A stretch of 64,000 nt of DNA from a virus. Lineage: Duplodnaviria; Heunggongvirae; Uroviricota; Caudoviricetes. The translations under genes and the position numbers were made by a program. Position 1 is the stretch's first letter, and each line of letters starts with the position of its first letter. The notes beneath the pieces were generated by a model. The model was given only the letters and a program-made list of their open reading frames with translations, was not told the origin of the DNA and searched no databases. The stretch spans positions 10,140 to 74,139 of IMG/VR virus record IMGVR_UViG_3300034082_002445; one strand, given 5' to 3'. This document shows, one piece after another, positions 5,252-62,141 of the stretch.

Positions 5252-5277
5252 CAAAAATAATAGATATATAAGCCAAT

Positions 5278-5976
5278 ATGTCAAAGTTAAAATCATTTTC
5301 TGAATTCGCTGGATTTAAAGAAGTCGATGCTCTTGGTTACGGCAACGAAGCTAAGAAACATCGCTTAACATATTCCAAAGAAAAACCAGTTATCATTAAG
5401 ATGACCAAAGAAAATGGTGTCTATGAACAACTCTTACACTTTCAAAATCCAAGAAATTCAAGTCAAGAAACTCTTTCTGAAATAGAAGAAAATATATCTT
5501 TGCAAAAAGAATTAAGCGATTCAGAAATTGAGTTTATTAAAAGAGCTGAAACTGACATGTTACTTTTAATCAATGAAAGATTAATTGAACTAGGTGGAAC
5601 TGATGAGATGCTTCTTCTACAAGCAGTAACTGCATTTACAGATCCTTTGCTTTATAAGTTAAAACATTTTTATAATAGACCAAGACCTGCTCAATTAGCA
5701 AGAGCATTAGATTTAGAATTGTATCCTGTAATTCCTACTAATGCCTCAAGTGCAGCTTATCCAAGTGGACATGCTCTTGATTCATATACATGTGGTTGGA
5801 TCATTGGTCAAAAATATCCTGAATTAGCTGATCAAATTTCAACTTTTTGTGAAGAAGTAGCTTTTACCAGAATTCAGGCTGGTGTACACTACAGATCTGA
5901 TGCTGATTTTTCTAAAATCATCTTTGATAAATTAGTAGAATCACAGACAATAACCTTGGATTATTTTTTATTGTAA
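5278..5976 (+). CDS. PAP2-superfamily phosphatase (acid phosphatase / haloperoxidase fold)
   Basis: All three PAP2 motifs: KHFYNRPRP (KX6RP), PSGHA, TRIQAGVHYRSD (SRX5HX3D). Confidence 0.75.
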   Translation: MSKLKSFSEFAGFKEVDALGYGNEAKKHRLTYSKEKPVIIKMTKENGVYEQLLHFQNPRNSSQETLSEIEENISLQKELSDSEIEFIKRAETDMLLLINERLIELGGTDEMLLLQAVTAFTDPLLYKLKHFYNRPRPAQLARALDLELYPVIPTNASSAAYPSGHALDSYTCGWIIGQKYPELADQISTFCEEVAFTRIQAGVHYRSDADFSKIIFDKLVESQTITLDYFLL

Positions 5977-6987: not shown

Positions 6988-8031
6988 GTGGAATTATTAA
7001 CTTACGAATCATTTATAAACAGTTCTAAGATCGTTGAATCTAGAAGACAACTACTAATAAACATCTTTAATCAATTTGAAGATATTAAGCCGATTATGAA
7101 CGAGGCTATTGCTATCATAGAACTTGGATCTTTAGACGAGGCTTTCGAAGGAGAAATCAATGAAGAAAGCATCATGGCTAAAATGAAAGATAAATTAGCT
7201 CAAGCTGTTGCTGTTGCAAAAGAAAAAGGCAAAGAAGCCTTGACTGGAGCTCAACAAAAAATTATTCAATTAGGTGGAAGTATTGGTAGTGTTATTAAAT
7301 TAATGATTGGTAAATTAAAAGAATGGATTTCAGCTGCATTTACAGCTGCTAAAGGATTTTATGCCAAAGCTGCTCAAGCTAAATCAGCTGATATTAAGGA
7401 TATGGTTAGTAAAGCAAGCGATGATACAAAGAATTTAATGATTAAAGAAATAGGACATTTAAAAACAGTTACTTCTTCTACTGCTTCATGGGTAATGAGT
7501 GGATTTTCTAAAGATGCAACTAAAGCTGCGGCTGAAGCTGCTAAAGAAGATGTTAAAGAATCATTTGAATTGGTAATTTTAGAATCTATTAATGAAGCTG
7601 TTTTATCAGGTGAATTGGACTTTACAGATCTTTTAGAATCTGATGGTCACAGTGCTGGAATTCCGTTTGTTAGTGCTATTGCACATAAAATGCACCATAT
7701 TCCTCCATTTAATCTATTAGACAAAGTAAAACAAGGAGCTGAGAAAGTTGCCTCCGGAGTTTTAAATAAACTTTCATATTATGCAACTGAATTAGCAGGT
7801 GCTCCAGGCCCATTTAAATTTGTTGCTCTGGCCGCCATTATTGGTATTATAGCTGAAGTACAGTTTAAAGGTATTGCAAAACATGCAGTTTTACACGCTG
7901 TTCCTGGATTAGGTTTAATGGCTTCTATTATATCTAACGTTGCAATGGCATTAGCCGTTGTTGGTATTGTTGAAGCGCTTATCGCTAAAAAAGATGGCGA
8001 TGAAGAAGGTCACGACAAAGCTGAAGCCTAA
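6988..8031 (+). CDS. Hypothetical protein: A/K-rich helical N-terminal half, two hydrophobic C-terminal helices
   Basis: ORF track; no recognisable catalytic motif. Confidence 0.5.
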   Translation: MELLTYESFINSSKIVESRRQLLINIFNQFEDIKPIMNEAIAIIELGSLDEAFEGEINEESIMAKMKDKLAQAVAVAKEKGKEALTGAQQKIIQLGGSIGSVIKLMIGKLKEWISAAFTAAKGFYAKAAQAKSADIKDMVSKASDDTKNLMIKEIGHLKTVTSSTASWVMSGFSKDATKAAAEAAKEDVKESFELVILESINEAVLSGELDFTDLLESDGHSAGIPFVSAIAHKMHHIPPFNLLDKVKQGAEKVASGVLNKLSYYATELAGAPGPFKFVALAAIIGIIAEVQFKGIAKHAVLHAVPGLGLMASIISNVAMALAVVGIVEALIAKKDGDEEGHDKAEA

Positions 8032-10560: not shown

Positions 10561-10598
10561 CACCTAACTTTTTTACCTTTTACATAGATATATAGTTT

Positions 10599-19838: not shown

Positions 19839-20657
19839 ATGAAAGCAATAAAATCCTATCAACAATTTGTAAATGAGGCAAAAAGCACAGGCTTAATTTA
19901 TACCATCTTAGATGCATTAGAACCAACTGTCTTAACTATGGTTAATGAAGTTGAAGCTTGGTTCATTAAAAAGTTTGAACGTCCTTTTTCTGATTTTGAT
20001 AGAGAAATGACTCATCTTCAGGTTATAGCTGACTTAGTTAAATCAATTGAATATTATACAGAGCCAACAGATACTTTGCTTTCAATCACACCATCTACAT
20101 CTCGTAAAGGTAACATTGAAATCTCTGCTCAAATTCAAAGAGGAACTGAAACATACAGTTTAAAGACAGAAGCTATTATTGCTGGTGGTTATAATATTCA
20201 ACGAGCTCATTATCGTTACCTAACAAGCACAAAATTGCCAAGAACTGGCAGATCAGAAATCAGCAAAGAATACACTGAAAAGATCAAGAAAATGACCAAA
20301 GCTGAAAAGCTAAATTTCGAGATTGAGAATTTGGAAAGAGACATTACACGAGTTAAAGAAAAACTAGCTAAAAACAGTCCAATGACTGATGCTCAAATTG
20401 AACAAGAGCTAATCGATACTCAATATTGGGCTTATAAAGACAATCCAACATGGGACGAATTGATCAAAAGAGATGCTGCTAAAAACTATAATAACTCTGA
20501 AGAAGAATACAATGCAAGTATAGCAAAAAACAAAGCTGGTGGTATTGAATTCTGGAAAACACAAAACGTTCAATGGCCTACCACCAGATTGAAATCTTTG
20601 GAAAAAGATGTTATCAAGCTTAGAGGCAAATTAGAAGTAATAACTGCTTCAATCTAA
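19839..20657 (+). CDS. CTS-family protein (divergent member: MKAIKSYQQFVNEAK)
   Basis: N-terminus related to the MKHIKLFEEFLNEA family. Confidence 0.5.
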   Translation: MKAIKSYQQFVNEAKSTGLIYTILDALEPTVLTMVNEVEAWFIKKFERPFSDFDREMTHLQVIADLVKSIEYYTEPTDTLLSITPSTSRKGNIEISAQIQRGTETYSLKTEAIIAGGYNIQRAHYRYLTSTKLPRTGRSEISKEYTEKIKKMTKAEKLNFEIENLERDITRVKEKLAKNSPMTDAQIEQELIDTQYWAYKDNPTWDELIKRDAAKNYNNSEEEYNASIAKNKAGGIEFWKTQNVQWPTTRLKSLEKDVIKLRGKLEVITASI

Positions 20658-23566: not shown

Positions 23567-24172
23567 ATGAAACATATTAAATTATTTGAAGATTTTTTAA
23601 ATGAAGCAACTCCTTCTGAAATTATAAAAGATTTGGATAAAGTAAGACATGACTTGATTAAAAAAGTAGATGTATTAATTGCTAAAAAGAAAAAACTTTA
23701 TTCTAATATAGATATTGAATCGCCGATGAGTGCTGATGAGAAAGAATTAGAGAAGGATATACAATCTATATTTTCACAGATCCAACAAATAATTCAACAA
23801 AAAAGAAAATTAAAAGAGTCGGTAAACGAAGCTGCAATAACATCTGATAAAATCAAACAATATTATTCTGCAATCTGTAAAGCTGAAGGCGTAGATGAAA
23901 TTCCATTGAGATTCGAATCAGTTAAATTCGGTGGTGCATCAACTACATATAATCCAAAAACAAACAAAGCACTTTACATTTCTTTCGATGTTAGTAAAAT
24001 GCACGATGCTGAATATGCTATTTTGCATGAATTAACACATCAAATAAAATTACAAACCGAAGGTGATCCATATCTTGGTAAAAAAGATCAATCTGCTAAA
24101 TTTAAGAAATTAGAGAATGCCATGATTGATAAATACATGTACTCTAGTTATTCCAATATACTTTGGAAATAA
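23567..24172 (+). CDS. CTS-family protein with an HExxH motif (putative zinc metallopeptidase)
   Basis: N-terminus MKHIKLFEDFLNEA; AILHELTHQ contains HExxH. Confidence 0.55.
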   Translation: MKHIKLFEDFLNEATPSEIIKDLDKVRHDLIKKVDVLIAKKKKLYSNIDIESPMSADEKELEKDIQSIFSQIQQIIQQKRKLKESVNEAAITSDKIKQYYSAICKAEGVDEIPLRFESVKFGGASTTYNPKTNKALYISFDVSKMHDAEYAILHELTHQIKLQTEGDPYLGKKDQSAKFKKLENAMIDKYMYSSYSNILWK

Positions 24173-24192: not shown

Positions 24193-24795
24193 ATGAAAAA
24201 TATTAGACTATTCGAACAATTTGTTAAGGATCTAGTCGAGAAAAAGGGCGACACATACAATTCAAGTTGTGCTATGTTGTACTTTGACTTTCCACAACTT
24301 GCAGAAATTCATTCCAAAATAGACGAAGAAGATCTTTACACCGAAGAAGAGGACAGAACATTTGGTTTAGAAGATGAACCGCATTGTACATTACTTTATG
24401 GTTTAGAAAACACAGTTACTCCAGATCAAATCGAACAAATAGTTAAGGGTATCAAATTTGGTAAGCTTAGACTTTACAATATGTCACTATTTGAAAATGG
24501 TAAGTATGATGTTTTAAAGTTTGATGTAGGCTATACTGATAAGAAATCTTCATTCTTGCATGATTGTAACGAAGAATTGACTAAGTTACCGTATAAGAGT
24601 GATTTCCCAGATTATCATCCTCACATGACAGTAGCATACTTAAAACCAGGAATGGGAGACAAATATACAATGGCATTTAAAAACGAAGAGCATGAGGTTT
24701 ATCCTAATCACATCATTTTTAGTGAGCCAGATAATACCAAGACTCAAATTGCAATTGATACGCTTTTGCCACCAGACAAAGCCAGAATGGATTAA
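24193..24795 (+). CDS. CTS-family protein with a 2H phosphoesterase fold (LigT / Acb1-like)
   Basis: N-terminus MKNIRLFEQFVKDL; two H-x-T-x motifs, PHCTLLYGL and HPHMTVAYL. Confidence 0.6.
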   Translation: MKNIRLFEQFVKDLVEKKGDTYNSSCAMLYFDFPQLAEIHSKIDEEDLYTEEEDRTFGLEDEPHCTLLYGLENTVTPDQIEQIVKGIKFGKLRLYNMSLFENGKYDVLKFDVGYTDKKSSFLHDCNEELTKLPYKSDFPDYHPHMTVAYLKPGMGDKYTMAFKNEEHEVYPNHIIFSEPDNTKTQIAIDTLLPPDKARMD

Positions 24796-26775: not shown

Positions 26776-26785
26776 ATAAATTAAC

Positions 26786-35068: not shown

Positions 35069-36181
35069 ATGAACAAAGTAACATTAGATAAGTATGTAGA
35101 AGCAGGTTGGTTGATTCGTCAGTCACACCCTACTTTGCCATTGTCAATCTACAATTACTCTCAATCTACACAGTATGAGAAGCATTGGGATGATATTACT
35201 TTGTCTTGTCGTGGAGTTATTACTGATGATGAAAATGGCAAGATTATCGTTAAGCCATTTCCAAAGTTCTTTAACTATGAAGAATTGCCAGCAACTATGA
35301 TTCCATGGTCAAACTCTGACTATGTTTATGTTCAAGAAAAAATGGATGGATCCTTGGGTATTTTATTTAACTATAAGAATGAGTGGATCTTATCAACTCG
35401 TGGATCTTTTACATCAGATCAGGCCATTCGAGGCTTAGAGATCTTAAAGGCCAAATACATCTTAGATGCTTTTGAACCTTCTGTTGCCTATTTATGTGAG
35501 ATTATTTACCCAGAAAATAGAATTGTGGTTGATTATGGCAAAGAAAAGATTACATTTTTAGGTGCAGCCATTAATCGATCTTGGAATTGGAAAGAAGGTG
35601 GAGACGATGAATTACATTGGACTACAGCACAGGCCTATTTTAAAATGTCAGGTATTAAAAAGTCTGATATTGTTAAAACTACTCAAGTCTTTGATTTGGG
35701 TCCAGAATTATACTCAACTTTAAAAGCTTTGAACAAAGCCAACGAAGAAGGTTACGTCTTACGTTTCTTTCCTTCTAACTTAAGGGTCAAAATCAAATTC
35801 GAGGATTACTGTACTTTGCACCGAATCTTAACTAATGTTTCTTCATACGATATTTGGGAAAACTTAATGAAATTTGGTAAATTGCCAGAGCAAATGCTTA
35901 ATGATGTACCAGATGAATTTTATGATTGGGTTCATGCAACTCAAGCCAAAATCACGGCAGATTTTAAACAAGTAATGCACTATCATTTGGCAGTTTGTTC
36001 TTCGATCTTAAGAGATGGTATGATGACTCAAAAAGAATTTGCTGAACAAGTTTTAGCTTTGAGTGATGTTAATCATGGTATCATTTTTGGCATTGCAAAT
36101 GGCAAAGATGTGAGCGAAAAGGCCTGGAAAATGGTTAAGCCAGAATATAGTAAGCCTTTTTCAAATGTCGTTGATATATAA
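35069..36181 (+). CDS. T4 RnlA-like RNA ligase 1 (tRNA-repair ligase)
   Basis: N-terminal SIYNYSQ..CRGVI..KFFNYEE and motif I QEKMDGSLGILF parallel T4 Rnl1 SYNYAS..CRGIMF..KFFNLNE..KEDGSLVSTY. Confidence 0.75.
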   Translation: MNKVTLDKYVEAGWLIRQSHPTLPLSIYNYSQSTQYEKHWDDITLSCRGVITDDENGKIIVKPFPKFFNYEELPATMIPWSNSDYVYVQEKMDGSLGILFNYKNEWILSTRGSFTSDQAIRGLEILKAKYILDAFEPSVAYLCEIIYPENRIVVDYGKEKITFLGAAINRSWNWKEGGDDELHWTTAQAYFKMSGIKKSDIVKTTQVFDLGPELYSTLKALNKANEEGYVLRFFPSNLRVKIKFEDYCTLHRILTNVSSYDIWENLMKFGKLPEQMLNDVPDEFYDWVHATQAKITADFKQVMHYHLAVCSSILRDGMMTQKEFAEQVLALSDVNHGIIFGIANGKDVSEKAWKMVKPEYSKPFSNVVDI

Positions 36182-36214: not shown

Positions 36215-36685
36215 ATGAAGCACATTAAATTATTCGAAGCCTTTATAGCTTCAAAACTAAACGAAAGCGATAACGATCCACATGGTGAAGTTCAAGCAGG
36301 ACTAATTACATTTAAACAAGGTGGACTTAAATTAGTTTCACACAGCGATGACAATGGTTATTCTGGTTATATCTGTAAAGACGGTGATAAAGCAGCTCTA
36401 GTAAAATTCTTATTAGATGGCTTTGATGGTAAACTATCTAAAATTGAAGGAAATTCTACTGCAATGTCTGATGTTTATTCTGAATACAGCGATGATACTG
36501 ATGCAATGGAAGCAAAATGGGAACCAGTAACAAAGTTCTTAAAGTGCAAATTTGATGACCTAATATTCTTAGATCTTTTAATGAATGAGGCTGATTTTTA
36601 CACTGAAGAAGAATATGACTTCGCAGCTGAAACATTAGACAATGCTAAAGCAAACACTAAATCTGTTAAATTAGCAGGTTTCTAA
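36215..36685 (+). CDS. CTS-family protein (MKHIKLFEAFIASKLNE...)
   Basis: Conserved N-terminus, acidic body. Confidence 0.55.
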   Translation: MKHIKLFEAFIASKLNESDNDPHGEVQAGLITFKQGGLKLVSHSDDNGYSGYICKDGDKAALVKFLLDGFDGKLSKIEGNSTAMSDVYSEYSDDTDAMEAKWEPVTKFLKCKFDDLIFLDLLMNEADFYTEEEYDFAAETLDNAKANTKSVKLAGF

Positions 36686-36790: not shown

Positions 36791-38221
36791 ATGAAATTCG
36801 TAGACGCTTTAAGACAAGAAGACATGCTAACCGAAAACGGTATGGCAACCAACTCAAGTTCATTGAATGCTTGTGTTGATTTATTCTTTAACATTGGTGC
36901 CATGAGAGGCCAAGACAAACAACGTTTGATCGCCACCTTCTCGAAAGCATTTAATGAAGATCCTAAACGTGCGATGAAACTTTTATTCTGGGCTCGTGAT
37001 GTCAGAGGTGGTGCTGGAGAACGTCAAGTTTTTAAAGACATTATCATTTACTTAGCAGAGGATCATGATTTGGCTTTAAAACCAAACTTGCATTTGATTG
37101 CCGAATATGGTAGATGGGATGATTTATTAGTTCTTACAGGAACACGTCTTGAAAAAGAAGCATTTACCTTAATTTCAGATGCTATCATAGCTGAAAATGG
37201 TTTATGTGCTAAATGGATGCCACGTAAAGGTCCAATTGCTGAAAAGTTACGTAAATTTACAGGCATGTCACCAAAGCAATATCGTAAATCTTTAGTTGGA
37301 TTAACTAGTGTTGTTGAGACTAAAATGTGTGCTAAAGAATGGGACACTATTGAATTTGGTAAATTACCATCAGTGGCCTCAGCCAGATACCAAAAAGCCT
37401 TTGGTAAAAATGCATACGAAAGTTATTCAGCTTATATCGCTTCTCTAGTAAAAGGTGAGGCTAAGATTAATGCAGGTGCAGTTTATCCTTATGACATTAC
37501 CAAGTCATTAAAACAAGGTAACGCAACAGTTGCAAACGAACAATGGAAAGCCCTTCCTAATTATTTAGAAGGCACAAGCGATATGATTTTACCAGTTGTG
37601 GATGTATCAGGTTCTATGTCAACTCCGGCTGGGGGTAGCAAATCTGTAACATGTTTGGATGTTGCTGTCTCATTAGGTCTTTATATTTCTGAAAGAAATG
37701 AAGGTCCTTTCAAAGATGCATTCATCACATTCTCTGATAATCCACAATTACAAGTATTAAGTGGTTCACTAAAAGATCGCTACGCACAGATGTCATCTTC
37801 AAATTGGGGAATGTCAACGAATCTCGAGGCGACTTTTAAATTGATCTTAGATCAAGCCACTAAGCATAATTTGTCTCAAGACGAAATGCCAAATAAGATT
37901 CTTATCTTATCAGATATGGAATTTAATGCGGCAACTGGAGGTGGAGGTTGGAGAAACGAAGATGGAAAATGGAATCCAACTGCACAACAAATGATCGAGA
38001 AGATGTACGATGCAGCAGGTTACACAATGCCTCAGATTGTTTATTGGAACATTCAATCTAGAAATGGTGGTGTACCAGTAGCCTTTGATACTCAAGGCAC
38101 TGCATTGGTAAGCGGATTCTCACCAGCAATTATGAAAAGTTTACTTGGAGGAGATATTGAATCTCCACAACAAATAATGGATAAAACAATCTTAAGCGAA
38201 AGGTACTCACCAATCGTTTAA
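36791..38221 (+). CDS. Ro60-like protein (TROVE-like N-terminal region plus C-terminal vWA domain with MIDAS)
   Basis: C-terminal vWA with DVSGSM..T..D MIDAS and ILILSDMEFN; a roughly 300-aa helical N-terminal region; architecture and size match bacterial Rsr/Ro60. Confidence 0.5.
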   Translation: MKFVDALRQEDMLTENGMATNSSSLNACVDLFFNIGAMRGQDKQRLIATFSKAFNEDPKRAMKLLFWARDVRGGAGERQVFKDIIIYLAEDHDLALKPNLHLIAEYGRWDDLLVLTGTRLEKEAFTLISDAIIAENGLCAKWMPRKGPIAEKLRKFTGMSPKQYRKSLVGLTSVVETKMCAKEWDTIEFGKLPSVASARYQKAFGKNAYESYSAYIASLVKGEAKINAGAVYPYDITKSLKQGNATVANEQWKALPNYLEGTSDMILPVVDVSGSMSTPAGGSKSVTCLDVAVSLGLYISERNEGPFKDAFITFSDNPQLQVLSGSLKDRYAQMSSSNWGMSTNLEATFKLILDQATKHNLSQDEMPNKILILSDMEFNAATGGGGWRNEDGKWNPTAQQMIEKMYDAAGYTMPQIVYWNIQSRNGGVPVAFDTQGTALVSGFSPAIMKSLLGGDIESPQQIMDKTILSERYSPIV

Positions 38222-43809: not shown

Positions 43810-44121
43810 ATGAAAATAACAGCATTAAACACAGAACAAGCCTCAGGCAAAACAAATGGCTCTAGCCTTAAAGGTTACATAGCTTGCAAATACGCAGATC
43901 TAATCTCATTATTGGGTCAGCCAGCTTATGGTCAATCTGGTGACGAAAAAGTCAATTTTGATTGGGTTGTAGAATTTGGAGGTAATTATTTTACCATCTA
44001 CGATTGGAAAACTTACAATGTCCGATATAGCACAGAGAGTTTAAATCAATGGAATGTTGGAGGTAAAGTTTCTGCTGCAGATTTTATTGAATATATAGAA
44101 AAACAAATTAAAAATAAATAA
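43810..44121 (+). CDS. hypothetical protein
   Basis: ORF track. Confidence 0.45.
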   Translation: MKITALNTEQASGKTNGSSLKGYIACKYADLISLLGQPAYGQSGDEKVNFDWVVEFGGNYFTIYDWKTYNVRYSTESLNQWNVGGKVSAADFIEYIEKQIKNK

Positions 44122-44122: not shown

Positions 44123-44545
44123 ATGAAGAACGTACAGTTATTTGAACAATTCTTGAATGAAGCTGCCATTTTTGACAATGACACAGTAGACATACAGGCA
44201 GCCATCGATATATTAAAGGATCGATTAGAAAAAGAAAATCCAGGTTATTATTCTCTTAGCAAAGGTGTATTTGGCAATGACACTATTATGTTGCTAGTTT
44301 CCTTGGATCCTAAATCAGAATGGTCTAATGGTTATGTTGAAAACTCTAACTACTTTAGAATGGCTATTTATAAAGATGGTAAAATGGAAACATTTGTACA
44401 AAGTCTTTACTATCCTAATGTTCCTGTAAGTTACGAATCTCGTTTAAAGATTAAATTTAGAAAGTCAACTGCCAAATCTATGAAAGATGCTGCTGACAGA
44501 TTAGTTAAATTTATCAATGAAATTAAAAAAGAAATGGGTAAATAA
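44123..44545 (+). CDS. CTS-family protein (MKNVQLFEQFLNEA)
   Basis: Conserved N-terminus. Confidence 0.55.
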   Translation: MKNVQLFEQFLNEAAIFDNDTVDIQAAIDILKDRLEKENPGYYSLSKGVFGNDTIMLLVSLDPKSEWSNGYVENSNYFRMAIYKDGKMETFVQSLYYPNVPVSYESRLKIKFRKSTAKSMKDAADRLVKFINEIKKEMGK

Positions 44546-45012
44546 TGAAGCACATTAAATTATTTGAACAGTTCATTAGTGAAGCTGTACAATATAAAAC
44601 TTTAGATGATGATAAAATCAAAACTAAAGATATTCATGACTGGTTGACTAAGATCAGATATAATGTTGGTAAAAGATTTCCAGCTACAAATGCAAAAACC
44701 AGAGAAGAAAAGATTGCAATCATCATGAATCCTGGATTTCAAGGAGCTTATACTGATTATCACCAACAATATTTTGATAGTTTATTAGCACAATGGCAAG
44801 GTGTTTGCGATAGCAATTTATCATCTAGAGGCATTGATGCTAATACCACAAAGGCAGAAAAAGAAGACATGTTTGACGCACTAGAATCTTGGATCACTAG
44901 AGAAAACGGAATCCTTGATGCTATTAAAGAACTTGGATTTGAATCTTTTGCTGCTAATGAAATAATGGGTGTATCTCACAAGAAGCCATTAAAATTAAAA
45001 CGTAAATATTAA
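44545..45012 (+). CDS. CTS-family protein (MKHIKLFEQFISEA)
   Basis: Conserved N-terminus. Confidence 0.55.
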   Translation: MKHIKLFEQFISEAVQYKTLDDDKIKTKDIHDWLTKIRYNVGKRFPATNAKTREEKIAIIMNPGFQGAYTDYHQQYFDSLLAQWQGVCDSNLSSRGIDANTTKAEKEDMFDALESWITRENGILDAIKELGFESFAANEIMGVSHKKPLKLKRKY

Positions 45013-45013
45013 T

Positions 45014-45460
45014 ATGAAGCACGTAAAACTATTTGAAGACTTCTTAGATGAATCCTTCTTAAATGAAATCGAACCAATCAATGAAATAGCTATGAGCTCT
45101 GCTGGTGTTAAATCTTTTTTAAGAGCAATGTACACTAATGCAGATGTCTTAAAAAAGATGGGCTTTAATAGTTTTAAAGATTTAGTAGGTTATATTAAAT
45201 CTAATGATTTACGAGATTGGGATGAATTAAGAGACGAGGCTAGAGAATATGGCTTAGTAGTAACTGAAGCTATCATGAACGAATCTAAAGAGTCAGATAT
45301 ATTAGCCAAAGAAATTGACAAAGCAATTGTTAAAATTAATGACTCATTGTCATACGAAGATTTTGCATTAGCAGTAGCTAAAGTACTTAAAGATGAATAT
45401 GGTACACATAACTTTGCACCATTCATGGAAGTATTACACAAAGACTTAGGAATAAAATAA
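45014..45460 (+). CDS. CTS-family protein (MKHVKLFEDFLDES)
   Basis: Conserved N-terminus. Confidence 0.55.
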   Translation: MKHVKLFEDFLDESFLNEIEPINEIAMSSAGVKSFLRAMYTNADVLKKMGFNSFKDLVGYIKSNDLRDWDELRDEAREYGLVVTEAIMNESKESDILAKEIDKAIVKINDSLSYEDFALAVAKVLKDEYGTHNFAPFMEVLHKDLGIK

Positions 45461-45470
45461 AGACATAGCA

Positions 45471-45794
45471 ATGAAAAACGTAAAACTATTTGAAGACTTC
45501 TTGAATGAAGCTAAGATTTTAACAAGAGACGAAATGATGAGCACTATGCGTACAAAGTATGGTCTTGATTTTGTAAAAACAACTGAAGAATTCGACGGTG
45601 AAGAAGGTGGTATCTGGTTAGGTGGTAGTGATGATCTTTTAATGCCAAATGCCAAAGATGAGATGTTTAACTACTATCATGGTGGATCTAAATATCCTCA
45701 AGGTATTCATAAAGATCTTGCTAAGTTTCTTGACAAATGTGGCTGGTATGGTCAATTTGCAGATCCAGGAACAGTAATGTTATGGCCAAAATAA
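45471..45794 (+). CDS. CTS-family protein (MKNVKLFEDFLNEA)
   Basis: Conserved N-terminus. Confidence 0.55.
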   Translation: MKNVKLFEDFLNEAKILTRDEMMSTMRTKYGLDFVKTTEEFDGEEGGIWLGGSDDLLMPNAKDEMFNYYHGGSKYPQGIHKDLAKFLDKCGWYGQFADPGTVMLWPK

Positions 45795-45806
45795 AAATAT
45801 AAAATT

Positions 45807-46022
45807 ATGAAAAACGTAAAACTATATCAAGAATTTGTAAACGAAGAAAACGTTGAAGAGGCTATGGTCCAAGTTGCTGGTAAAAACAAACCATCTGGTG
45901 CTCAAGTTCTTGCTATGTTAATTGTAAAATACCTTGATGATAATCTAATTATGCCTTCAAATGCAAATAAGAAGGCAATCACAGAAGAGATTAAGCAGTT
46001 AATTATGGATTCTACTTATTAA
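45807..46022 (+). CDS. CTS-family protein (MKNVKLYQEFVNEE), 71 aa
   Basis: Conserved N-terminus. Confidence 0.5.
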   Translation: MKNVKLYQEFVNEENVEEAMVQVAGKNKPSGAQVLAMLIVKYLDDNLIMPSNANKKAITEEIKQLIMDSTY

Positions 46023-46027
46023 AAGTA

Positions 46028-46426
46028 ATGAAGAAGATCAAACTATATGAAGAGTTCTTAGCTGAGAAGAATCTACAAAATGTAGAAGAAGCTGTTGGCG
46101 ATATGGTTAAAGGTGCTGTAAAAGCTGGAGCTAAAAAAGCTGGTAATGCTCTTCTTAAAGCTACTGGTTTGGATCAAGTCAAGAACCTTATGACTCAAGT
46201 TAAAAAGAACAAAGAAAAAGCAGCTAAAATTGCAAAGAAAGCTCAAGCTGCGGCCAAATCAAAAAAGCCAGCAGAAGAAGCAAGCTTAGATAAAAATCTA
46301 GCAGCAGTGCAACTTAATATGACTAATCTTGATGCTCAAAAGCTACAGCTAAAAGCCAAAGAATTAAACATCAAAAAGCAAATTGCAGCTGAAAAAGCAA
46401 AACCTGATGAACCAAAGAAAAAATAA
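46028..46426 (+). CDS. CTS-family K/A-rich histone H1-like protein
   Basis: MKKIKLYEEFLAEK then KAGAKKAGNALLKA...KKNKEKAAKIAKKAQAAAKSKKPAEE. Confidence 0.55.
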   Translation: MKKIKLYEEFLAEKNLQNVEEAVGDMVKGAVKAGAKKAGNALLKATGLDQVKNLMTQVKKNKEKAAKIAKKAQAAAKSKKPAEEASLDKNLAAVQLNMTNLDAQKLQLKAKELNIKKQIAAEKAKPDEPKKK

Positions 46427-51793: not shown

Positions 51794-53161
51794 ATGAAAA
51801 CAACATTTAAAGAATTCGTCGGAGAAGCCTTAATTACAGAAGGTCAATTCTCGTGGATGACACATGATACAGGAAACCAAATTGGTTCTGAAAAGCAAAA
51901 TACCATTGAAGTTACTATGTTTGACAACAAAGGTAACAAATGGACTGAGAAGAAATACGACGGTTACGGAGAATTCAGTGGTAAAGACTACTATGAATTA
52001 CTAGCTCAAATGAATGGTATTGAAAATGCAGGCAGACAAGATGGTATTGATCTAGCGTTTGGTAAACAAAGAATCAAAGGAAAAGTTCTTTTCCCAGCTC
52101 TAATAGAAGATCCAAGAAGCTTTAACTATAAAAAGCACGATTTTACACAAGAAGCACCAAATGATCCAAATCAATCATGGTACCAAGAAGAAGAGGAAGA
52201 TGATTACAATGAATCAATAGTTACTGAATCTGCAGTTACTAAATTAGCTGACAAACTTATGGATATGGATTACACTGTTTTTAAATCATTAGGTTTAAGA
52301 AGTGGTGGAGAATTATATTCAAACAAAATGATGCAGAAAAAGTACACAGATGCTATGAAAGCTGCAATTGACAAAGCTGGTATCGCAGATACAATTACTA
52401 AAAATGGTCAAGCAATCTATGATGAATTAGAGGACAACAACTATCACTCAACAAATGCATTTTTAGTCTTAGGTGGTTATATTTTACCTAAATTAATTGG
52501 CATGTATAAAGAAATAGCTAAGTCAAGTCCTAATTCAACTTTACAACCATTCAATGAATCATTAGTGACAGAATCAAAAGTTACTTTCCACTTTAAAGAA
52601 TTTGACAATTCATTACACTTCTCCGATGGCACAATCGTCAAGATTGACTATGATGGTGATTTTGAATATAGAAGCAAATGGTTTACAATAGAAAGCGATG
52701 TTGAAAAACAATTAAACAAAGCATTTCCAACTGATAAATTTCAACACGCAGCTAGATTAGATGAATCAGTTGCTACTTCTACATCAAGTTCTGATGAATA
52801 TTCTTCGTTTTTTGTAAAGCTTTTAGCAGTAAGAGACCAAGCACATATTTTTCATTGGCAAACCAAAAGTTTTGAAGAACATGATGCATTTGGAGGTCAT
52901 TACGAAGCTTACATTGGTTTAATGGATAATTTAGCCGAAGCTATTATGGGTAAATATCAAAGACCATCTCTTGTTAAAGGAATTATTGAACTAGAAGACT
53001 ATAGTCCTCAAGCAATAGAAACATATTTAGGTGATTGCTATATGTTATTTGTTGAAGATTCAAAGGCGATATTCTCTGAACAAGATTCAGAACTTAACAA
53101 CATCGTTGATGAAATTATCGCTTTACTAGATAAGTTAAAATATGTTTTAACTTTAAAGTAA
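51794..53161 (+). CDS. CTS-like protein (MKTTFKEFVGEA; closest to T4 MKTYQEFIAEA), 455 aa
   Basis: N-terminal similarity; no recognisable domain. Confidence 0.5.
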   Translation: MKTTFKEFVGEALITEGQFSWMTHDTGNQIGSEKQNTIEVTMFDNKGNKWTEKKYDGYGEFSGKDYYELLAQMNGIENAGRQDGIDLAFGKQRIKGKVLFPALIEDPRSFNYKKHDFTQEAPNDPNQSWYQEEEEDDYNESIVTESAVTKLADKLMDMDYTVFKSLGLRSGGELYSNKMMQKKYTDAMKAAIDKAGIADTITKNGQAIYDELEDNNYHSTNAFLVLGGYILPKLIGMYKEIAKSSPNSTLQPFNESLVTESKVTFHFKEFDNSLHFSDGTIVKIDYDGDFEYRSKWFTIESDVEKQLNKAFPTDKFQHAARLDESVATSTSSSDEYSSFFVKLLAVRDQAHIFHWQTKSFEEHDAFGGHYEAYIGLMDNLAEAIMGKYQRPSLVKGIIELEDYSPQAIETYLGDCYMLFVEDSKAIFSEQDSELNNIVDEIIALLDKLKYVLTLK

Positions 53162-53260: not shown

Positions 53261-53980
53261 ATGCGTAATATTCTAACATTAGAACAATTTTTATATGAAG
53301 GTGTACACGATCCTAATATTCTCAAAGCTTTTTTTATGGCTGGAGGACCTGGATCTGGTAAATCTCACGTGGCTGGAGAACTTTTTGGCTTTCCGTATGG
53401 AACATCACAATCAGTTAGCTACTCGACTGGATTAAAAATGATTAATTCGGATCAAGCGTTTGAATTCCAACTTAGAAACGCAGGTATAGATCCAAAGGAT
53501 TTGGCTACTATGGATCCTGAAGAATTTCAAAAGCTAACAAGTGGACCTGATTCATTAAGAGGTATTGCAAAAAGATCTACTGTTGCAAGAAAAAATCTAT
53601 ATGAACAAGGCAAATTAGGCATGATCTTAGATGGAACTGGAGATGATTTTAATAAGATTGCTAAGAAGAAGAAAAAACTTAATGATTTAGGATATGACAC
53701 TTACATGATTTTTGTTAACACATCATTGGAAGTTGCACAATTTAGAAATTCAAATAGATCAAGATCTTTACCAGAAACAATGGTAGAAGAAATTTGGCAA
53801 GCAGTCCAAAATAACTTAGGACATTTTCAAAGAGAATTCGGCAGCAATAATATTATCATTGTCGACAATTCAGAAAATGCAAATGATATATTCGTCTCAA
53901 TTGAAAAAGAAATTAAAAAAATACTAACTCGTCCATTGAAAAACCCAATCGGTAAGAAATGGATAGCAGACAATAGATAA
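53261..53980 (+). CDS. P-loop NTPase / kinase (zeta-toxin / AAA_33-like) with a CTS-like N-terminus
   Basis: MRNILTLEQFLYEG...FFMAGGPGSGKSH (Walker A), MILDGTGDD (Walker B-like). Confidence 0.55.
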   Translation: MRNILTLEQFLYEGVHDPNILKAFFMAGGPGSGKSHVAGELFGFPYGTSQSVSYSTGLKMINSDQAFEFQLRNAGIDPKDLATMDPEEFQKLTSGPDSLRGIAKRSTVARKNLYEQGKLGMILDGTGDDFNKIAKKKKKLNDLGYDTYMIFVNTSLEVAQFRNSNRSRSLPETMVEEIWQAVQNNLGHFQREFGSNNIIIVDNSENANDIFVSIEKEIKKILTRPLKNPIGKKWIADNR

Positions 53981-58923: not shown

Positions 58924-60297
58924 ATGAAACACATTAAACTATACGAAGATTTCGTAAATGAAGCCACAACATCATGGAAGAAAATGATGCAAGGTGTTAG
59001 ATCAAGTGAAACCGGCCCTTGGTCAATCGTAGCAATTCAAGACCGTAAGGTTGTTGGACAATCAATCGATATTAAAATTCAAGACCTAATTCCTGCAAAA
59101 TACGAAGCTCTAAAAAAAGAGTTTCCTAAAGCCAAACTTCATATTGAAGATGGAACTGGTATGGTGGTTTGGAATGAATCATTAGAAATTAACGAATCTC
59201 TTATTAATGAAGATTCATCTATGGCATTTTTTATATTAATGCAAGCTGCAATAGTTAATGGACTTTTAATAGGTCAAATGGCTAATAGTGGTGGTGGAGA
59301 TGGATTTCATCCTATTGATGATTTAAAAGCATGGTGGCAGAAAAGAAAATCTGACAAGGCTCTAAAGTCTATTATTGATAAAATAAAAGATGATGAAGAT
59401 GTTGTTAAATTTATGAAGCTTACGCCTTCTCAGCAACGTGGTAAGTTTAGATCATTAATTGCAACCAAATTAAATGACGAGGAATTAGAATACCTAAATA
59501 GAATTAATAGAAATCATTTTCAAACAGAATCATTAGACCTTAATGAAGGTGGTGGTACTTTAAAGGTTGAAAAAGAAAAAGATGGTAAATATTACTGGAC
59601 TTTTACATTTAATTCTGGTAAAGTCGAAAAATGGCCAAATGGATTTGCTACATCTGCTGAAGCACAAAAAGATTTCATGTACAGATCAAAGCATTTAAAA
59701 GAAGGTACTTTTAATTCTAAAAGAGAAATTGCCATCTATGATGGAGCAGAAGGATTAACTCACATCGAGAAACGTGGAAAAGGTTACTATGGTTACAATG
59801 ACGAATTTGATTTTGTAGCCGATGATAAAGCTGATCTAGAAAAGAAACTAAAATCATGGAAATACAAACTGATTTCAGGTTCTATTGATGAAAATGCTAC
59901 AGAACTTGATGAAGCAGTTAAAATTCAACCAGGCATGGGAGCATTTTACAGTTACACAACAGATCACAAACTAATCGAAAAGATTTTCAAAGAAGCATTC
60001 AAAGGTCAAGAAGACAAGTTGTATCGTGCAAACTTCTTTAACACAGGTGCACCTTGCATTAAATTTGAATTAAAGAATCAAAGCAGTTGGCAATTGGTTT
60101 ATTATCCAGGTCAAACTTATTTAGAAGATCATGGTTTAGGTAGTATTTCATTATACCCTTATGGTCCACAAGACTCACGTTACTTGGTTTTTAAAGTTGG
60201 CGTAAAAGGCAACAGAAGATTCGGTGACACTAAAATGACACCAGCTGAAATCAAAGAAGCTGCAACAGAATTTAAAAATTGGGTAAATAAACAATAA
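58924..60297 (+). CDS. CTS-family protein, 457 aa (MKHIKLYEDFVNEA)
   Basis: Conserved N-terminus. Confidence 0.55.
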   Translation: MKHIKLYEDFVNEATTSWKKMMQGVRSSETGPWSIVAIQDRKVVGQSIDIKIQDLIPAKYEALKKEFPKAKLHIEDGTGMVVWNESLEINESLINEDSSMAFFILMQAAIVNGLLIGQMANSGGGDGFHPIDDLKAWWQKRKSDKALKSIIDKIKDDEDVVKFMKLTPSQQRGKFRSLIATKLNDEELEYLNRINRNHFQTESLDLNEGGGTLKVEKEKDGKYYWTFTFNSGKVEKWPNGFATSAEAQKDFMYRSKHLKEGTFNSKREIAIYDGAEGLTHIEKRGKGYYGYNDEFDFVADDKADLEKKLKSWKYKLISGSIDENATELDEAVKIQPGMGAFYSYTTDHKLIEKIFKEAFKGQEDKLYRANFFNTGAPCIKFELKNQSSWQLVYYPGQTYLEDHGLGSISLYPYGPQDSRYLVFKVGVKGNRRFGDTKMTPAEIKEAATEFKNWVNKQ

Positions 60298-60308
60298 TAA
60301 ATAAGATT

Positions 60309-61253
60309 ATGAAACACATTAAATTATACGAAGAATTCTTAAATGAAGCTAAAGGCAAACCTACAAAAGATTCGTCGATTAAAGATCATTATGGCAAAAC
60401 CATAAAACAAGTTCTTGAAGACGAGGATGGAGAAAATGAATATCTAACTATTCAATTCACTGACAATACAGAAATGTACATCACAGCATATCCTACTGGA
60501 AACGGAGGAGTTGGTTTAGTAGTAGAATCAGTAAATGAAGCTATCGATACTAAATATTGGGCAACTTACAACAAAGACACATCAGGTCAAGGTAATAAAG
60601 ATTTCGCTGACAAAAGCAAAAACTTTGATGACTGTTTTGATTATGCAGTAGAAGCTTGGAACAATGAAGCAGATGGTCCAGAAAACAAGATTAAAGGCGC
60701 TGCTATCGGTAAAATTCAAAAAATGGCTAAAGAATTCTTCAAGAAAGAAGGATGGATTTCAGTTAACGTAATACAAGCAATGATTATGCAAGACGGTGCA
60801 ATGACCGAGTCAACTAACATTAATGAATCATCGATCCAATATTTTAAGCCAACTGTTTTAGACAAGAAAAATGCAGTAGATGCTAAACTTTTCAAAAAAT
60901 TAATGCCAAGAACATCAGGTACAACTGAAGAGGCAATGGAAAGAATCTGGCATTTTGAAGATTCAACTATGTTTGCACATTATCAGTACCATGTAGTAAA
61001 GCCAAATGGCAATAAGCCTGATAGACCAACTTACAGATTACACCAATCACAATATTGGTTATCGAGCGCATACGACAATCAAATCAAAAATCTAGGTTTA
61101 GATCCAAAAGAAGGCGTTAACACAACACTAGTTACTATTTTTGATATTACAGATCCCGCAAACGAAGTTAACTTAGGTAAAGTTTGGGTAGACACTAGAC
61201 AATTCTTAGACGAGATGAACAGAGTCTTTGAAATAATTAAAAGAGCATCATAA
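60309..61253 (+). CDS. CTS-family protein, 314 aa (MKHIKLYEEFLNEA)
   Basis: Conserved N-terminus. Confidence 0.55.
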   Translation: MKHIKLYEEFLNEAKGKPTKDSSIKDHYGKTIKQVLEDEDGENEYLTIQFTDNTEMYITAYPTGNGGVGLVVESVNEAIDTKYWATYNKDTSGQGNKDFADKSKNFDDCFDYAVEAWNNEADGPENKIKGAAIGKIQKMAKEFFKKEGWISVNVIQAMIMQDGAMTESTNINESSIQYFKPTVLDKKNAVDAKLFKKLMPRTSGTTEEAMERIWHFEDSTMFAHYQYHVVKPNGNKPDRPTYRLHQSQYWLSSAYDNQIKNLGLDPKEGVNTTLVTIFDITDPANEVNLGKVWVDTRQFLDEMNRVFEIIKRAS

Positions 61254-61267
61254 AAAAATAAAATACA

Positions 61268-61750
61268 ATGAAACACATCAAACTATACGAAGAATTCGTA
61301 AATGAGTCTAAAACGATTCAACAAAAACACTATGACAGCTTAGTTAAATCAGCAACTAAGGCTCTTAAAAGCTGGGAGCAAGAATTAAAATCAGCACCAA
61401 CAGACAAGAAAGATTACATTGAAGATCGTATTGATACCATTGCTAGAATCTTGGCTAATGACACAAATCTACAAGCACATGCTGATGCAGCTGCTGCTAC
61501 AGAATTAGGCTATGACGATCCTAAAGTAATTCAAATGGATTTAGATGCTGCTGAAGAATTTTTAGCAGACAGAGAAGAAGTAGCAAAAGCTATTCAAGAC
61601 AAAATCAAAAAAGGCGAGTACCAAAGTGTGACTGTGGCTAGTAATTTGGTTGGTTCAGAATCAGATCTAAAATCAAATCTAAAAGAGATTGAGGCAACGA
61701 TCAAAAGCTTAAAAACCAGAATCGCTGACTTGACAAAAAAACTAGGTTAA
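61268..61750 (+). CDS. CTS-family protein, 160 aa (MKHIKLYEEFVNES)
   Basis: Conserved N-terminus. Confidence 0.55.
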   Translation: MKHIKLYEEFVNESKTIQQKHYDSLVKSATKALKSWEQELKSAPTDKKDYIEDRIDTIARILANDTNLQAHADAAAATELGYDDPKVIQMDLDAAEEFLADREEVAKAIQDKIKKGEYQSVTVASNLVGSESDLKSNLKEIEATIKSLKTRIADLTKKLG

Positions 61751-61752
61751 TC

Positions 61753-62136
61753 ATGAAACACATTAAACTATATGAAGAATTCGTAACAGAAGCCACTAAA
61801 TTAAAATCTCTGTATGACAACATCTATAGCACATCTATGGATCAAAACGAAGTTTCCAGTTATGTTGTTTATCTTGATGGTAAAAAACCAATATCAATCG
61901 GTTCATATAAAGATATAACACCTTATTCTGCTCAGGTTACTGGTGATAATGAATTTAAAGTTAGTTTTAGTGATGGTAAGAACAGAACGCAAGTTATTTT
62001 TACAACTAATGTAGATGCAAGAAAAGAGGACAGAGACTCTTATAACAAATACGGTGGACTGATCTATATTTTTGAACCAATAACAGATAAGCTAGCTTCT
62101 GAAATTATGAAGAAAGTGCCTGATTTAAATAAATAA
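61753..62136 (+). CDS. CTS-family protein, 127 aa (MKHIKLYEEFVTEA)
   Basis: Conserved N-terminus. Confidence 0.55.
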   Translation: MKHIKLYEEFVTEATKLKSLYDNIYSTSMDQNEVSSYVVYLDGKKPISIGSYKDITPYSAQVTGDNEFKVSFSDGKNRTQVIFTTNVDARKEDRDSYNKYGGLIYIFEPITDKLASEIMKKVPDLNK

Positions 62137-62141
62137 AACTA

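Follow-up and report, generated by a model that had tools for sequence, protein, structure and literature searches.

A shared N-terminal peptide on at least 17 unrelated phage proteins resembles the T4 capsid-targeting sequence and may mark injected cargo

Seventeen plus-strand genes in the window, the 64-kb stretch of DNA from an uncultured giant phage analyzed here, encode proteins with a common 13-residue N-terminus and unrelated bodies. We consider it likely that this N-terminus is a capsid-targeting sequence (CTS) of the T4 type, three residues longer than its T4 counterpart and a greatly expanded variant of a known mechanism. The tag probably brings these unrelated proteins, 17 or more, into the virus head, from which they would be injected; if so, it would mark a large hidden set of host-takeover and anti-defense proteins.

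The N-terminal tag and its carriers

The 17 open reading frames, 71 to 457 aa long, all start where the initial annotation placed them and open with the consensus MK(H/N)(I/V)KL(F/Y)E(E/D/Q)F(L/V/I)NE(A/S). A regular expression for the motif core has 15 matches in the six frames of the window, each on the plus strand and each directly after an initiator Met; a broader expression yields no additional full matches in the window beyond the known members. A chance motif is ruled out by this confinement to N-termini and to one strand. The two looser members are gene 36215 (genes are named by their first nucleotide), which reads MKHIKLFEAFIASKLNES, and gene 51794, which reads MKTTFKEFVGEA, is two residues shorter, and is the closest of all to T4.

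Tandem runs of six genes at 44123-46426 and of five at 58924-62534 had been noted, and both are present. The six-gene array comprises the following features, in which an arrow marks a predicted cleavage site:

44090..44097, + strand: AATATATA, one of the [AG]ATATATA elements (probable late promoter), 33 nt upstream of 44123 at the head of the array
44123..44545, + strand: tagged gene, first in the array, 140 aa, MKNVQLFEQFLNE↓A
44545..45012, + strand: tagged gene, 155 aa, MKHIKLFEQFISE↓A
45014..45460, + strand: tagged gene, 148 aa, MKHVKLFEDFLDE↓SFLNE↓I, a doubled site
45471..45794, + strand: tagged gene, 107 aa
45807..46022, + strand: tagged gene, 71 aa, MKNVKLYQEFVNE↓E
46028..46426, + strand: tagged gene, 132 aa, Lys/Ala-rich, pI about 10, MKKIKLYEEFLAE↓K

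The five-gene array contains:

58924..60297, + strand: tagged gene, first in the array, 457 aa, internal linkers ESLEINE↓S and ESLDLNE↓G
60309..61253, + strand: tagged gene, 314 aa, a three-module polyprotein
61268..61750, + strand: tagged gene, 160 aa
61753..62136, + strand: tagged gene, 127 aa
62142..62534, + strand: tagged gene, 130 aa, basic, MKHIQLYEEFLRE↓N

The remaining tagged genes, with two divergent candidates of low confidence, are:

19839..20657, + strand: tagged gene, 272 aa, MKAIKSYQQFVNE↓A
23567..24172, + strand: tagged gene, 201 aa, internal ESVNE↓A linker at nt 23816-23833, GATATATA 28 nt upstream
24193..24795, + strand: tagged gene, 200 aa, body weakly 2H phosphoesterase/Acb1-like, under the Pfam cut-off
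36215..36685, + strand: tagged gene, 156 aa, MKHIKLFEAFIASKLNE↓S, site shifted by 4 residues, GATATATA 42 nt upstream
51794..53161, + strand: tagged gene, 455 aa, tag as short as that of T4 (MKTTFKEFVGE↓A), linkers ESIVTE↓S and ESLVTE↓S inside the protein, C-terminal DUF5856 domain
53261..53980, + strand: tagged gene, 239 aa, MRNILTLEQFLYE↓G, zeta-toxin/AAA_33-type kinase body, GATATATA 32 nt upstream
5278..5976, + strand: possible 18th member, divergent, MSKLKSFSEFAGFKE.., a PAP2 phosphatase, directly behind GATATATA
6988..8031, + strand: possible 19th member, divergent, GTG start, (M)ELLTYESFINSSKIVE↓S, 29 nt behind GATATATA

The canonical Glu site is missing from a few members: gene 24193, in which the tag ends KD instead of NE (..FVKD), and gene 36215.

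The bodies in the window are mutually unrelated, as had been claimed (best E = 0.07 in an all-against-all BLASTP), which rules out a paralogous family with a conserved N-terminal domain. Single-linkage clustering joins genes 58924, 60309, 45471, and 45807 through homologs in other phages, and gene 44545 has a homolog at 82% identity in two related loci (L030/L035). The initial annotation also held the bodies to be undescribed; this is correct only in part, and does not apply to the kinase 53261, to the DUF5856 protein 51794, or to 24193 with its weak 2H/Acb1 likeness. Sequence searches of the PDB with 24193 and 51794 were empty. Cargo pI spans 4.3 to 10, and many cargoes are therefore unlike the basic T4 internal proteins (IPs).

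The [AG]ATATATA element is found 16 times on the plus strand of the window and once on the minus strand. Four tagged genes (23567, 36215, 44123, and 53261) have a copy 28-42 nt upstream. In related loci, its ATATATA core lies upstream of 95% of portal genes and 97% of protease genes. The element is a probable late promoter.

Register with the T4 capsid-targeting sequence

The T4 sequence to which the tag was originally compared is correct: the T4 record has MKTYQEFIAEA at the N-terminus of IPII and IPIII, and MKTFKEFTS at that of IPI. The tag is in register with MKTYQEFIAE↓A of IPII and IPIII. When a profile of 162 tagged N-termini was compared with 140 T4 ORFs and 13 named T4 proteins, IPII and IPIII ranked first (E = 0.005 and 0.012; next match E = 0.21), profile positions 5-14 aligning to their residues 2-11. 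Residues 4 and 7 of the T4 CTS are involved in targeting, and residues 8 and 10 in processing (PMC9026906). Their counterparts in the 162 N-termini are F/Y7 (100%), F10 (100%), V/I/L11 (100%), and E13 (99%); the residues that T4 requires are the invariant ones in the tag.

The proposed (L/V)NE↓A site is, at the sequence level, equivalent to that of T4 and follows the gp21 cleavage pattern of (L/I/V)-x-Glu and a small residue. In T4, replacing the Glu that corresponds to E13 by Asp blocks cleavage. The motif V/I/L11-N12-E13 is conserved, and conservation collapses after E13-A14, with an information content of 3.4 bits at E13, 1.5 bits at position 14, and about 0.2 bits from position 15. Position 14 is Ala in 54%, Ser in 12%, and Gly in 6% of the N-termini (72% together), and one of these three follows the Glu in 87% of the best library-wide matches. 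The tag has further hallmarks of a CTS, beginning at Met1 with aromatics at the equivalents of IPIII residues 4 and 7 and occurring independently of its cargo, on the dissimilar bodies of the window, on members of many body clusters, and on Tad3 (see below). The likeness ends with the peptide: the mature bodies have no detected homology to IPI, IPIII, or IPII, phmmer with T4 ipI, ipII, and ipIII returning nothing at E <= 0.01 from any ORF of the window and 87 loci.

Internal linkers and cargo

Degenerate copies of the tag (..ESVVNE↓A..) are situated exactly at the module junctions of fusion proteins. In one related locus (L097), for example, the internal stretch SELVKLVESNVNEAKKLDRD aligns to the N-terminal MKYLKLFEQFVNEAKTLDRD of relatives. 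The linker pattern occurs 17 times in tagged proteins against 4.8 expected (P = 1e-5); the enrichment of a loose site pattern, [LIVF][NT]E[ASG], is marginal (P = 0.04). As in polyvalent proteins, unrelated modules are split by predicted protease sites, here ..ES(V/L/I)xNE↓A.

Gene 60309 contains two such linkers, ESVNE↓A (aa 73-78) and ESTNINE↓S (aa 167-174), and its second module directly follows the tag in homologs. In the AF2 model (overall pLDDT 79.8), pLDDT is about 60 ahead of the first predicted site and about 89 beyond it, and falls under 50 at residues 165-170, where the second site lies; the model has no significant match in the PDB or a viral structure library. Depending on the phage, the module of gene 45471 stands by itself, forms the second module of a protein, or is joined to the tagged head-module ORF, and in eight homologs ..ES(F/V)(I/V)NE↓A stands immediately ahead of it. 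Its AF2 model (pLDDT 72.6) has no significant fold match in the PDB. The internal copies suggest a simple rule by which phages could build and dismantle effector polyproteins.

One tagged gene of a relative (L032:2861-3607) encodes, in this order, the tag, a spacer, SIDSINE↓G, and a full-length Tad3 (PDB 9b7d_B, E = 6e-34; Pfam, E = 4.8e-22). The Tad3 domain in PDB 9b7d is without the tag. The suggestion that the tagged genes form an anti-defense arsenal thus gains a concrete case, a bona fide Thoeris inhibitor as tagged cargo. Cargo identified or suggested by such similarities comprises Tad3 in this relative, the zeta/AAA_33-type kinase and the weak 2H/Acb1-like match in the window, and many small proteins.

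Selection on the peptide

The codons of the tag differ synonymously between genes (AAA/AAG, CAT/CAC, TTA/CTA, TTT/TTC, TAT/TAC), and the DNA upstream of the tagged genes is without conservation, indicating selection at the peptide level. This bears on two readings in which the peptide would not act as a signal. The 5' end could be mainly a recombination cassette, some 40 nt of near-identical DNA at gene starts that allows bodies to be swapped, with a functionless peptide. Bodies are indeed shuffled, the 168 tagged proteins of the lineage DNA sampled falling into 75 clusters with modules solo or fused, and the IP loci of T-even phages are highly variable between phages. However, the amino acids are fixed while synonymous positions vary freely, conservation ends at a residue boundary that matches the protease site, and the internal degenerate copies preserve the peptide pattern rather than the DNA. 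A mere cassette is thus very improbable; recombination may be a by-product of the tag and cannot account for it.

Still less probable is that the N-terminus enhances translation initiation from within the coding sequence, in a host without Shine-Dalgarno-led initiation. No Shine-Dalgarno sequence is visible upstream of the tagged genes, their leaders are A/T-rich, and codons 2-5 are A-rich, but most other genes of the window do without the motif, which moreover is kept inside fusion proteins, far from start codons. Conservation also reaches residue 14, includes hydrophobic and acidic residues, and tolerates synonymous variation.

The head module of related phages

Targeting to a T4-like prohead calls for a gp21-like protease and a T4-like capsid protein, and in related phages a gp21-family protease and Gp23 do share contigs with tagged genes. 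Seven contigs contain both tagged genes and the protease, and three of these (IMG/VR 3300042318_001127, 3300042511_000879, and 3300042563_003307) are 234-236 kb long. The protease of one locus (L155, domain at 9992-10560) scores 44.7 bits against Pfam Peptidase_S77 (MEROPS S77, PF03420; curated cut-off 27), and the capsid protein matches Pfam Gp23 at E = 5.5e-41. The head module of the related contigs is of the T4 type and consists of the portal, a small tagged ORF, the S77 protease fused to the scaffold, and the Gp23 capsid protein. The scaffold part of the protease protein consists of ..EH(I/V)AE↓K.. repeats; in T4, gp23 is cleaved at FLTE↓A. The ORF between portal and protease occupies the position of T4 gp67/gp68. 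Of the 62 loci having both genes, 61 show the tag or a variant of it at the beginning of this ORF; one variant, MKIIKTFEEFTSS, resembles the T4 IPI start MKTFKEFTST.

Protease, scaffold, and capsid genes are found neither in the window nor in its flanks of about 13 kb (L086, L172, L176), so the link to the S77 protease rests on the related contigs, which share with the window the tag and also 3-7 genes, whose products are about 26-71% identical. The flanks, defined as contigs matching genes near both window ends plus one exact 30-mer walking step, encode a sigma factor, a guanylate kinase, an ATPase, and small ORFs. The sole match of the flank RecA-like ATPase is a 484-kb uncultured phage. Several assemblies break close to the right end of the window.

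Distribution of the tag

At least 85 matches to a strict DNA pattern for the tag occur in IMG/VR; the 185,579 representative cellular genomes scanned contain no match. The tag is charged and amphipathic, without a hydrophobic core, and does not conform to Sec, Tat, or T9SS export signals; the concern that it might be a generic signal is not borne out. Two scans of cellular genomes gave no clue to the host, the sole match being a 36-aa ORF in an archaeal MAG, probably by chance. Among 1.84 billion proteins, 285 cluster representatives match at E <= 1e-3, and the match begins at residue 1 in 143 of the best 150 library-wide matches.

Nucleotide and protein searches found no cultured member of the lineage. 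Megablast of the region at 40-50 kb of the window against GenBank phages returned nothing, and tblastn with the 457-aa member (58924) was likewise empty. By portal similarity, the nearest GenBank genomes are LR756500 and Tenacibaculum phage PTm1; the tag is absent from the head region of the latter and from 40-kb samples of LR756500 and LR756508, genomes that are nearest by portal or ATPase similarity. RNA ligase matches are scattered and uninformative as to lineage. A search of the full-text literature for tag peptide strings found no paper, and the motif is unmentioned in the Far-T4 papers.

A different partner for the peptide has to be weighed here. The tag could be a docking or propeptide signal for something other than the prohead, such as a phage chaperone, an intracellular compartment, an export route, or a cytoplasmic protease that activates zymogens. 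The evidence tying the tag to the head comes from sequence, AF2 renders the peptide as a low-confidence short helix that could bind many partners, and acidic enzymes would be unusual as internal proteins. Against this, the tag matches the experimentally defined T4 CTS in register and in key residues, a conserved tagged gene sits between portal and prohead protease in related genomes, and the peptide is charged and amphipathic, lacks a hydrophobic core, and is absent from cellular genomes. We regard such a partner as unlikely.

Proposed role and significance

Under the CTS reading, we infer a sequence of late synthesis, core binding, cleavage, packaging, and ejection. The tagged proteins would be synthesized late in infection, and their short amphipathic helix, MKHIKL(F/Y)E(D/E/Q)F, would bind the scaffolding core of the assembling prohead, so that any carrier is enclosed. 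The scaffold-fused serine protease of the gp21 family would then cut after the invariant Glu of (V/I/L)-N-E↓(A/S/G), freeing the cargo inside the head, and would cut multi-module cargoes further at internal ..ES(V/L/I)xNE↓A linkers. The cargo would leave the head with the DNA and act at the very start of the next infection. At least 17 cargo species, some of them 450-aa enzymes, may crowd one head, and some may enter it only in traces or remain outside.

More tentatively, and with somewhat less than even confidence, we propose that the tag is a readable address label of an injected proteome. In an abundant, uncultured group of jumbo phages related to T4, several hundred unrelated protein families, some of them lone modules and others polyproteins that the prohead protease cleaves, would enter the head, be released by that protease, and travel into the host with the DNA. 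Should packaging be confirmed, the tag would allow injected phage proteins to be predicted by sequence alone, a class enriched in anti-defense functions and otherwise very hard to recognize; the tagged Tad3 gives this idea substance. The label could then serve as a beacon for mining anti-defense and host-takeover proteins, with prepackaged RNA-repair enzymes and inhibitors of signaling immunity like Tad3 as candidates. Once packaging is confirmed, the tag (for example MKHIKLFEDFLNEA) would also give engineers of phage-head protein delivery a second CTS, one of natural origin.

Comparison with known systems

The T4 IPs are the closest parallel. Both systems use N-terminal MK..(Y/F)(Q/E)(E/D)F(I/V/L)xE↓A peptides on unrelated, fast-changing bodies, with a gp21-family protease in the lineage, and T4 IPI is an anti-restriction protein, paralleling the tagged Tad3. 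Unlike the T4 CTS, the tag is three residues longer (MKHIKL..) and strongly prefers Asn two residues before the cut. T4 has three IPs, whereas at least 17 members lie in 64 kb here and the lineage as a whole has at least 75 families of bodies. None of the T4 IPs has a homolog among the bodies, many cargoes are acidic or enzymes, some are multi-module polyproteins with internal sites, and the protease is fused to the scaffold. The small, acidic-tailed protein encoded between portal and protease recalls the T4 core proteins gp67, gp68, and Alt, and its incorporation into the core and trimming at (L/I)xE would be expected. It has no detectable sequence relation to gp67 or gp68 and, unlike them, carries a cargo-type tag and sometimes fused cargo modules.

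PhiKZ-like giant phages such as SPN3US process many head-internal proteins with the prohead protease after Glu and then eject them (PMC5694885, PMC7411985, PMC10052503). Processing and ejection of the proposed cargo would be similar. The phiKZ-like propeptides are long, differ from one another, and are not known to share a short tag recognizable by sequence alone. The polyvalent proteins of phages and conjugative elements likewise combine several unrelated effector modules in a single chain that enters the host with the DNA, and some are released proteolytically (PMC5512222). The modules described here differ in being small, in being split by recognizable copies of the tag's cleavage end, and in also occurring as single tagged genes. 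The Dar proteins of P1 and MuF-fused toxins are comparable effector polypeptides delivered with DNA.

Although familiar for decades, the T4 CTS has, as far as we are aware, been recognized in T-even phages alone and on a small number of proteins. What reads as the same device, with the same key residues, is now found in a distant, uncultured T4-related lineage, and there it is multiplied.

Tagged Genes in the Window

All 17 start coordinates listed in the initial annotation open an ORF on the + strand, 71 to 457 aa in length, and the proteins share the N-terminus MK(H/N)(I/V)KL(F/Y)E(E/D/Q)F(L/V/I)NE(A/S), hereafter the tag. A regular expression for the motif core, run over the window in six reading frames, gave 15 matches, all on the + strand and each immediately after the initiator Met; a broader expression over the window added no full match. 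Looser members are genes 36215 (genes are named by start coordinate), in which the Glu site is shifted by four residues, and 51794 (MKTTFKEFVGEA), which is shorter by two residues. The bodies are unrelated, as had been claimed (the best pairwise similarity among window bodies is no better than E = 0.07), and the tandem arrays are present, at 44123-46426 (six members) and 58924-62534 (five). The analysis confirms the observation. Most conserved positions of the tag show synonymous codon differences, and the upstream DNA is unconserved; selection therefore acts on the peptide.

Two genes immediately following the putative promoter element [AG]ATATATA may be members 18 and 19 of the tagged set: 5278-5976, a PAP2 phosphatase with the divergent tag-like N-terminus MSKLKSFSEFAGFKE, and 6988-8031, with a GTG start and the divergent tag-like N-terminus (M)ELLTYESFINSSKIVES.

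The window has a G+C content of 34.6% and nearly all of its genes lie on the same strand; no Shine-Dalgarno sequences are visible. Its gene content includes 24 tRNA genes, Rnl1/gp63-like and Rnl2-like RNA ligases, an ATP-dependent DNA ligase, a Ro/TROVE protein, a collagen-like tail fibre, an endolysin, a CCA-adding-type nucleotidyltransferase, a metallophosphoesterase and a small kinase. No close relative was found among the GenBank phages searched; many metagenome assemblies and IMG/VR contigs hold nearly identical or related pieces. About 5.5 kb past the right end of the window (flanking locus L086:15900-16189), several independent assemblies stop in a G+C-richer stretch, which could be a genome end or an assembly-breaking repeat.

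Feature groups and promoter-like elements in the window
407-5252, 10488-10561, 11548-11623: tRNA genes, 22 of 24 within 5 kb at the window start, most amino acids covered
10102-10278, 11299-11466, 12093-12686: Chlamydia Hc1-type histone-like protein, holin and non-specific endonuclease, grouped (precomputed Pfam on matching contigs)
20758-21501, 22091-23221, 24193-24795, 26134-27199, 35069-36181, 36791-38221, 53261-53980: dense RNA-repair toolkit of CCA-adding-type nucleotidyltransferase, Rnl2-like and Rnl1-like ligases, metallophosphoesterase plus AAA_33 kinase, Ro/TROVE, and two tagged members (a weak 2H/Acb1-like match; a zeta/AAA_33-type kinase)
206, 5263, 6959, 10087, 10587, 13712, 15239, 23539, 32499, 36173, 38222, 44090, 47411, 51075, 53229, 63637: + strand, [AG]ATATATA

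Distribution and Shape of the Tag

At least 85 IMG/VR stretches matched a strict degenerate DNA pattern written for the tag, and translation of the matched loci yielded 213 tagged ORFs, nearly all at most about 30 codons from an upstream in-frame stop, with tandem runs frequent. The strict pattern had no match in 185,579 bacterial and archaeal species (one genome each), and the single match of a looser pattern in cellular genomes is probably an accident. When a profile built from the 16 window N-termini with the clearest tag was compared with 1.84 billion cluster representatives, 285 were found at E <= 0.001, a threshold that is demanding for a signal of 14 residues; the match starts at residue 1 in 143 of the top 150 of these.

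Among 162 distinct tagged N-termini, F/Y7, F10 and V/I/L11 are invariant as classes, E13 reaches 99%, and 72% have A, S or G at position 14; from position 15 onward the information drops to about 0.2 bits. H3 (64%) and N12 (75%) are conserved as well, although the regular expression that picked these sequences leaves both positions unconstrained. Judged from sequence, this profile is that of a putative short functional peptide ending at a defined bond. The initial annotation read the tag as a capsid targeting sequence (CTS) like that of the T4 internal proteins, and this is still the most likely explanation: the tag is probably a T4-type CTS by which a large number of unrelated proteins enter the prohead, where the prohead protease would remove it after (V/I/L)NE. 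Most of the remaining probability falls to a tag that addresses some other shared partner.

Head Module and Protease

A search of the fetched loci with T4 head proteins identified gp20, gp21 and gp23 homologues immediately adjoining tagged ORFs. In L031, a related locus, the gene order is portal, tagged ORF, 693-aa protein and capsid protein, the 693-aa protein combining a gp21-like domain at its N-terminus with a scaffold-like region after it, made of ..YSEH(I/V)AEKTDQ.. repeats. The protease domain has 398 relatives in IMG/VR; among the contigs listed by this search, seven are also tag-bearing by the strict DNA pattern, three of them 234-236 kb in size, and therefore the protease and the dispersed tagged genes share genomes. 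In L155, a contig of 234 kb, Pfam Peptidase_S77 matches the protease above the curated cut-off, and Pfam Gp23 matches the capsid protein (E = 5.5e-41). Loci from these contigs have 3 to 7 genes in common with the window, at about 26-71% amino-acid identity. The gp21-like protease implied by the CTS proposal is located on related tag-bearing contigs, and not in the window or about 13 kb of its flanks.

An ORF lies between portal and protease in 61 of the 62 loci having both genes; L149 has two ORFs there. The encoded protein is conserved, about 100 aa long with an acidic tail, and its N-terminus is the tag or a tag variant (MKHVKLFEEFLSEE.., MKKVRLYEDFIAE.., MKIIKTFEEFTSSLQE..).

The capsid proteins of the lineage (e.g. 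L155:12073-13605) start MANLINE↓SE..PIIE↓SATG.. (arrows mark predicted cleavage points) and contain ..CHNHKLYEDA.. in the N-terminal region before the Gp23 domain. This stretch resembles MKHIKLYEDF of the tag, and the two may be a shared scaffold-binding element.

Shuffled Modules and Tag Copies within Proteins

In several phages, additional modules are found between the tag and the conserved head-module ORF, with junctions ..VNE↓A.., ..NE↓S.. or similar. One such protein (L097) retains a decayed internal copy of the entire tag, its internal stretch SELVKLVESNVNEAKKLDRD aligning with the N-terminal MKYLKLFEQFVNEAKTLDRD of relatives. Window gene 45471 is related to the module fused to the L031 head-module ORF (46% identity, E = 2e-27), and in eight of its database homologues this module is itself the second one, every time after ..ES(F/V)(I/V)(N/T)E↓A. 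Internal linkers of this type are present in window genes 23567, 51794, 58924 and 60309; for 60309, module 2 comes straight after the tag in some homologues, and in its AF2 model pLDDT climbs from about 60 to about 89 across the first predicted site and is <50 at residues 165-170, the second. The specific linker pattern occurs 17 times in tagged proteins versus 4.8 expected (P = 1e-5), a looser site pattern is only marginally enriched (P = 0.04), and some database proteins contain a complete second tag internally.

This domain-boundary location is as predicted for a cleavage site. Because the peptide pattern is kept far from start codons, the internal element cannot be a translation signal; the internal copies, the synonymous variation and the residue-level boundary contradict both an N-terminus acting as a translation enhancer and a conserved 5' end that is purely a recombination cassette.

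Three homologues of 60309 (P0059, P0061 and P0077) have an N-terminal DUF3008 domain (MPS.S.AQQ.LMGQAYA.KTG..) in place of the tag, and P0077 has a tag-like motif at residue 69, after that domain.

Probable Promoter Element and Timing

The T4 late promoter is TATAAATA, which [AG]ATATATA resembles. The + strand of the window carries 16 copies of this element and the - strand a single one; ten of the 16 + strand copies sit 12-42 nt upstream of a gene start, among them those of tagged genes 23567, 36215, 53261 and 44123, which opens the six-gene array. Across related loci, the ATATATA core stands upstream of the portal gene in 95% of cases and of the protease gene in 97%, but before none of 53 capsid genes. 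This lineage probably uses the element as its late promoter, in which case tagged genes and head genes would share an expression class. The gene for the Hc1-type histone-like protein is preceded by a AATATATA element.

Putative Cargo Bodies

Sampled DNA yielded 168 distinct tagged proteins, whose bodies form 75 clusters; the majority of bodies have no family match. Those with one include a Tad3 Thoeris inhibitor, a zeta/AAA_33-type kinase, a weak 2H/Acb1-like match, cytidylyltransferase-like, ATP-grasp and GNAT enzymes, an RNA 2'-phosphotransferase-like protein, DUF5661 and DUF5824. The predicted Tad3 (L032:2861-3607, from a phage with six genes in common with the window) consists of the tag, a 25-residue spacer, SIDSINE↓G and a full-length Tad3 match; its identity is clear at the level of sequence (E = 6e-34 to PDB 9b7d_B residues 7-190). 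Tad3 binds and blocks ThsB, the Thoeris TIR protein (PMC13402655). Since the window's zeta/AAA_33-type kinase and weak 2H/Acb1-like member sit in an RNA-repair-rich genome, they suggest, speculatively, pre-packaged RNA-end-healing or cyclic-nucleotide-degrading enzymes. Predicted structures of 45471 and 60309, both usable models, gave no significant fold match. If packaging is confirmed, the tag would be a sequence-only identifier of injected proteins, of high practical interest.

Comparison with T4

The T4 sequence given in the initial annotation, MKTYQEFIAEA, is that of both IPII and IPIII in the T4 record; IPI starts MKTFKEFTSTTT, which the interval-ORF variant MKIIKTFEEFTSSLQE.. resembles. 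When the tag profile was compared with 13 named T4 proteins and with all ORFs from 50 aa upward in 58 kb of T4, IPII and IPIII came out at the top, with profile positions 5-14 matching T4 residues 2-11, which sets T4 Y4/F7/I8/E10↓A11 in register with (F/Y)7/F10/(V/I/L)11/E13↓A14 of the tag. T4 gp23 contains FLTE↓A, the same pattern as FLNE↓A of the tag, at its cleavage site. The portal-protease interval ORF occupies the place of T4 prohead core genes 67 and 68, with no sequence relation to their products detectable in the loci searched.

In T4 IPIII, the first ten residues are enough for packaging, residues 4 and 7 direct targeting, and residues 8 and 10 direct processing, which is blocked by Asp at position 10 (PMC9026906). 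Positions 4, 7, 8 and 10 are exactly the invariant positions of the new tag. A full-text search for the tag peptide strings found no paper in the library searched. The CTS mechanism as such is already known; what is new is a probable CTS in a distant uncultured T4-related lineage and its scale, together with a polyprotein architecture with recognisable internal sites and tagged anti-defence cargo.
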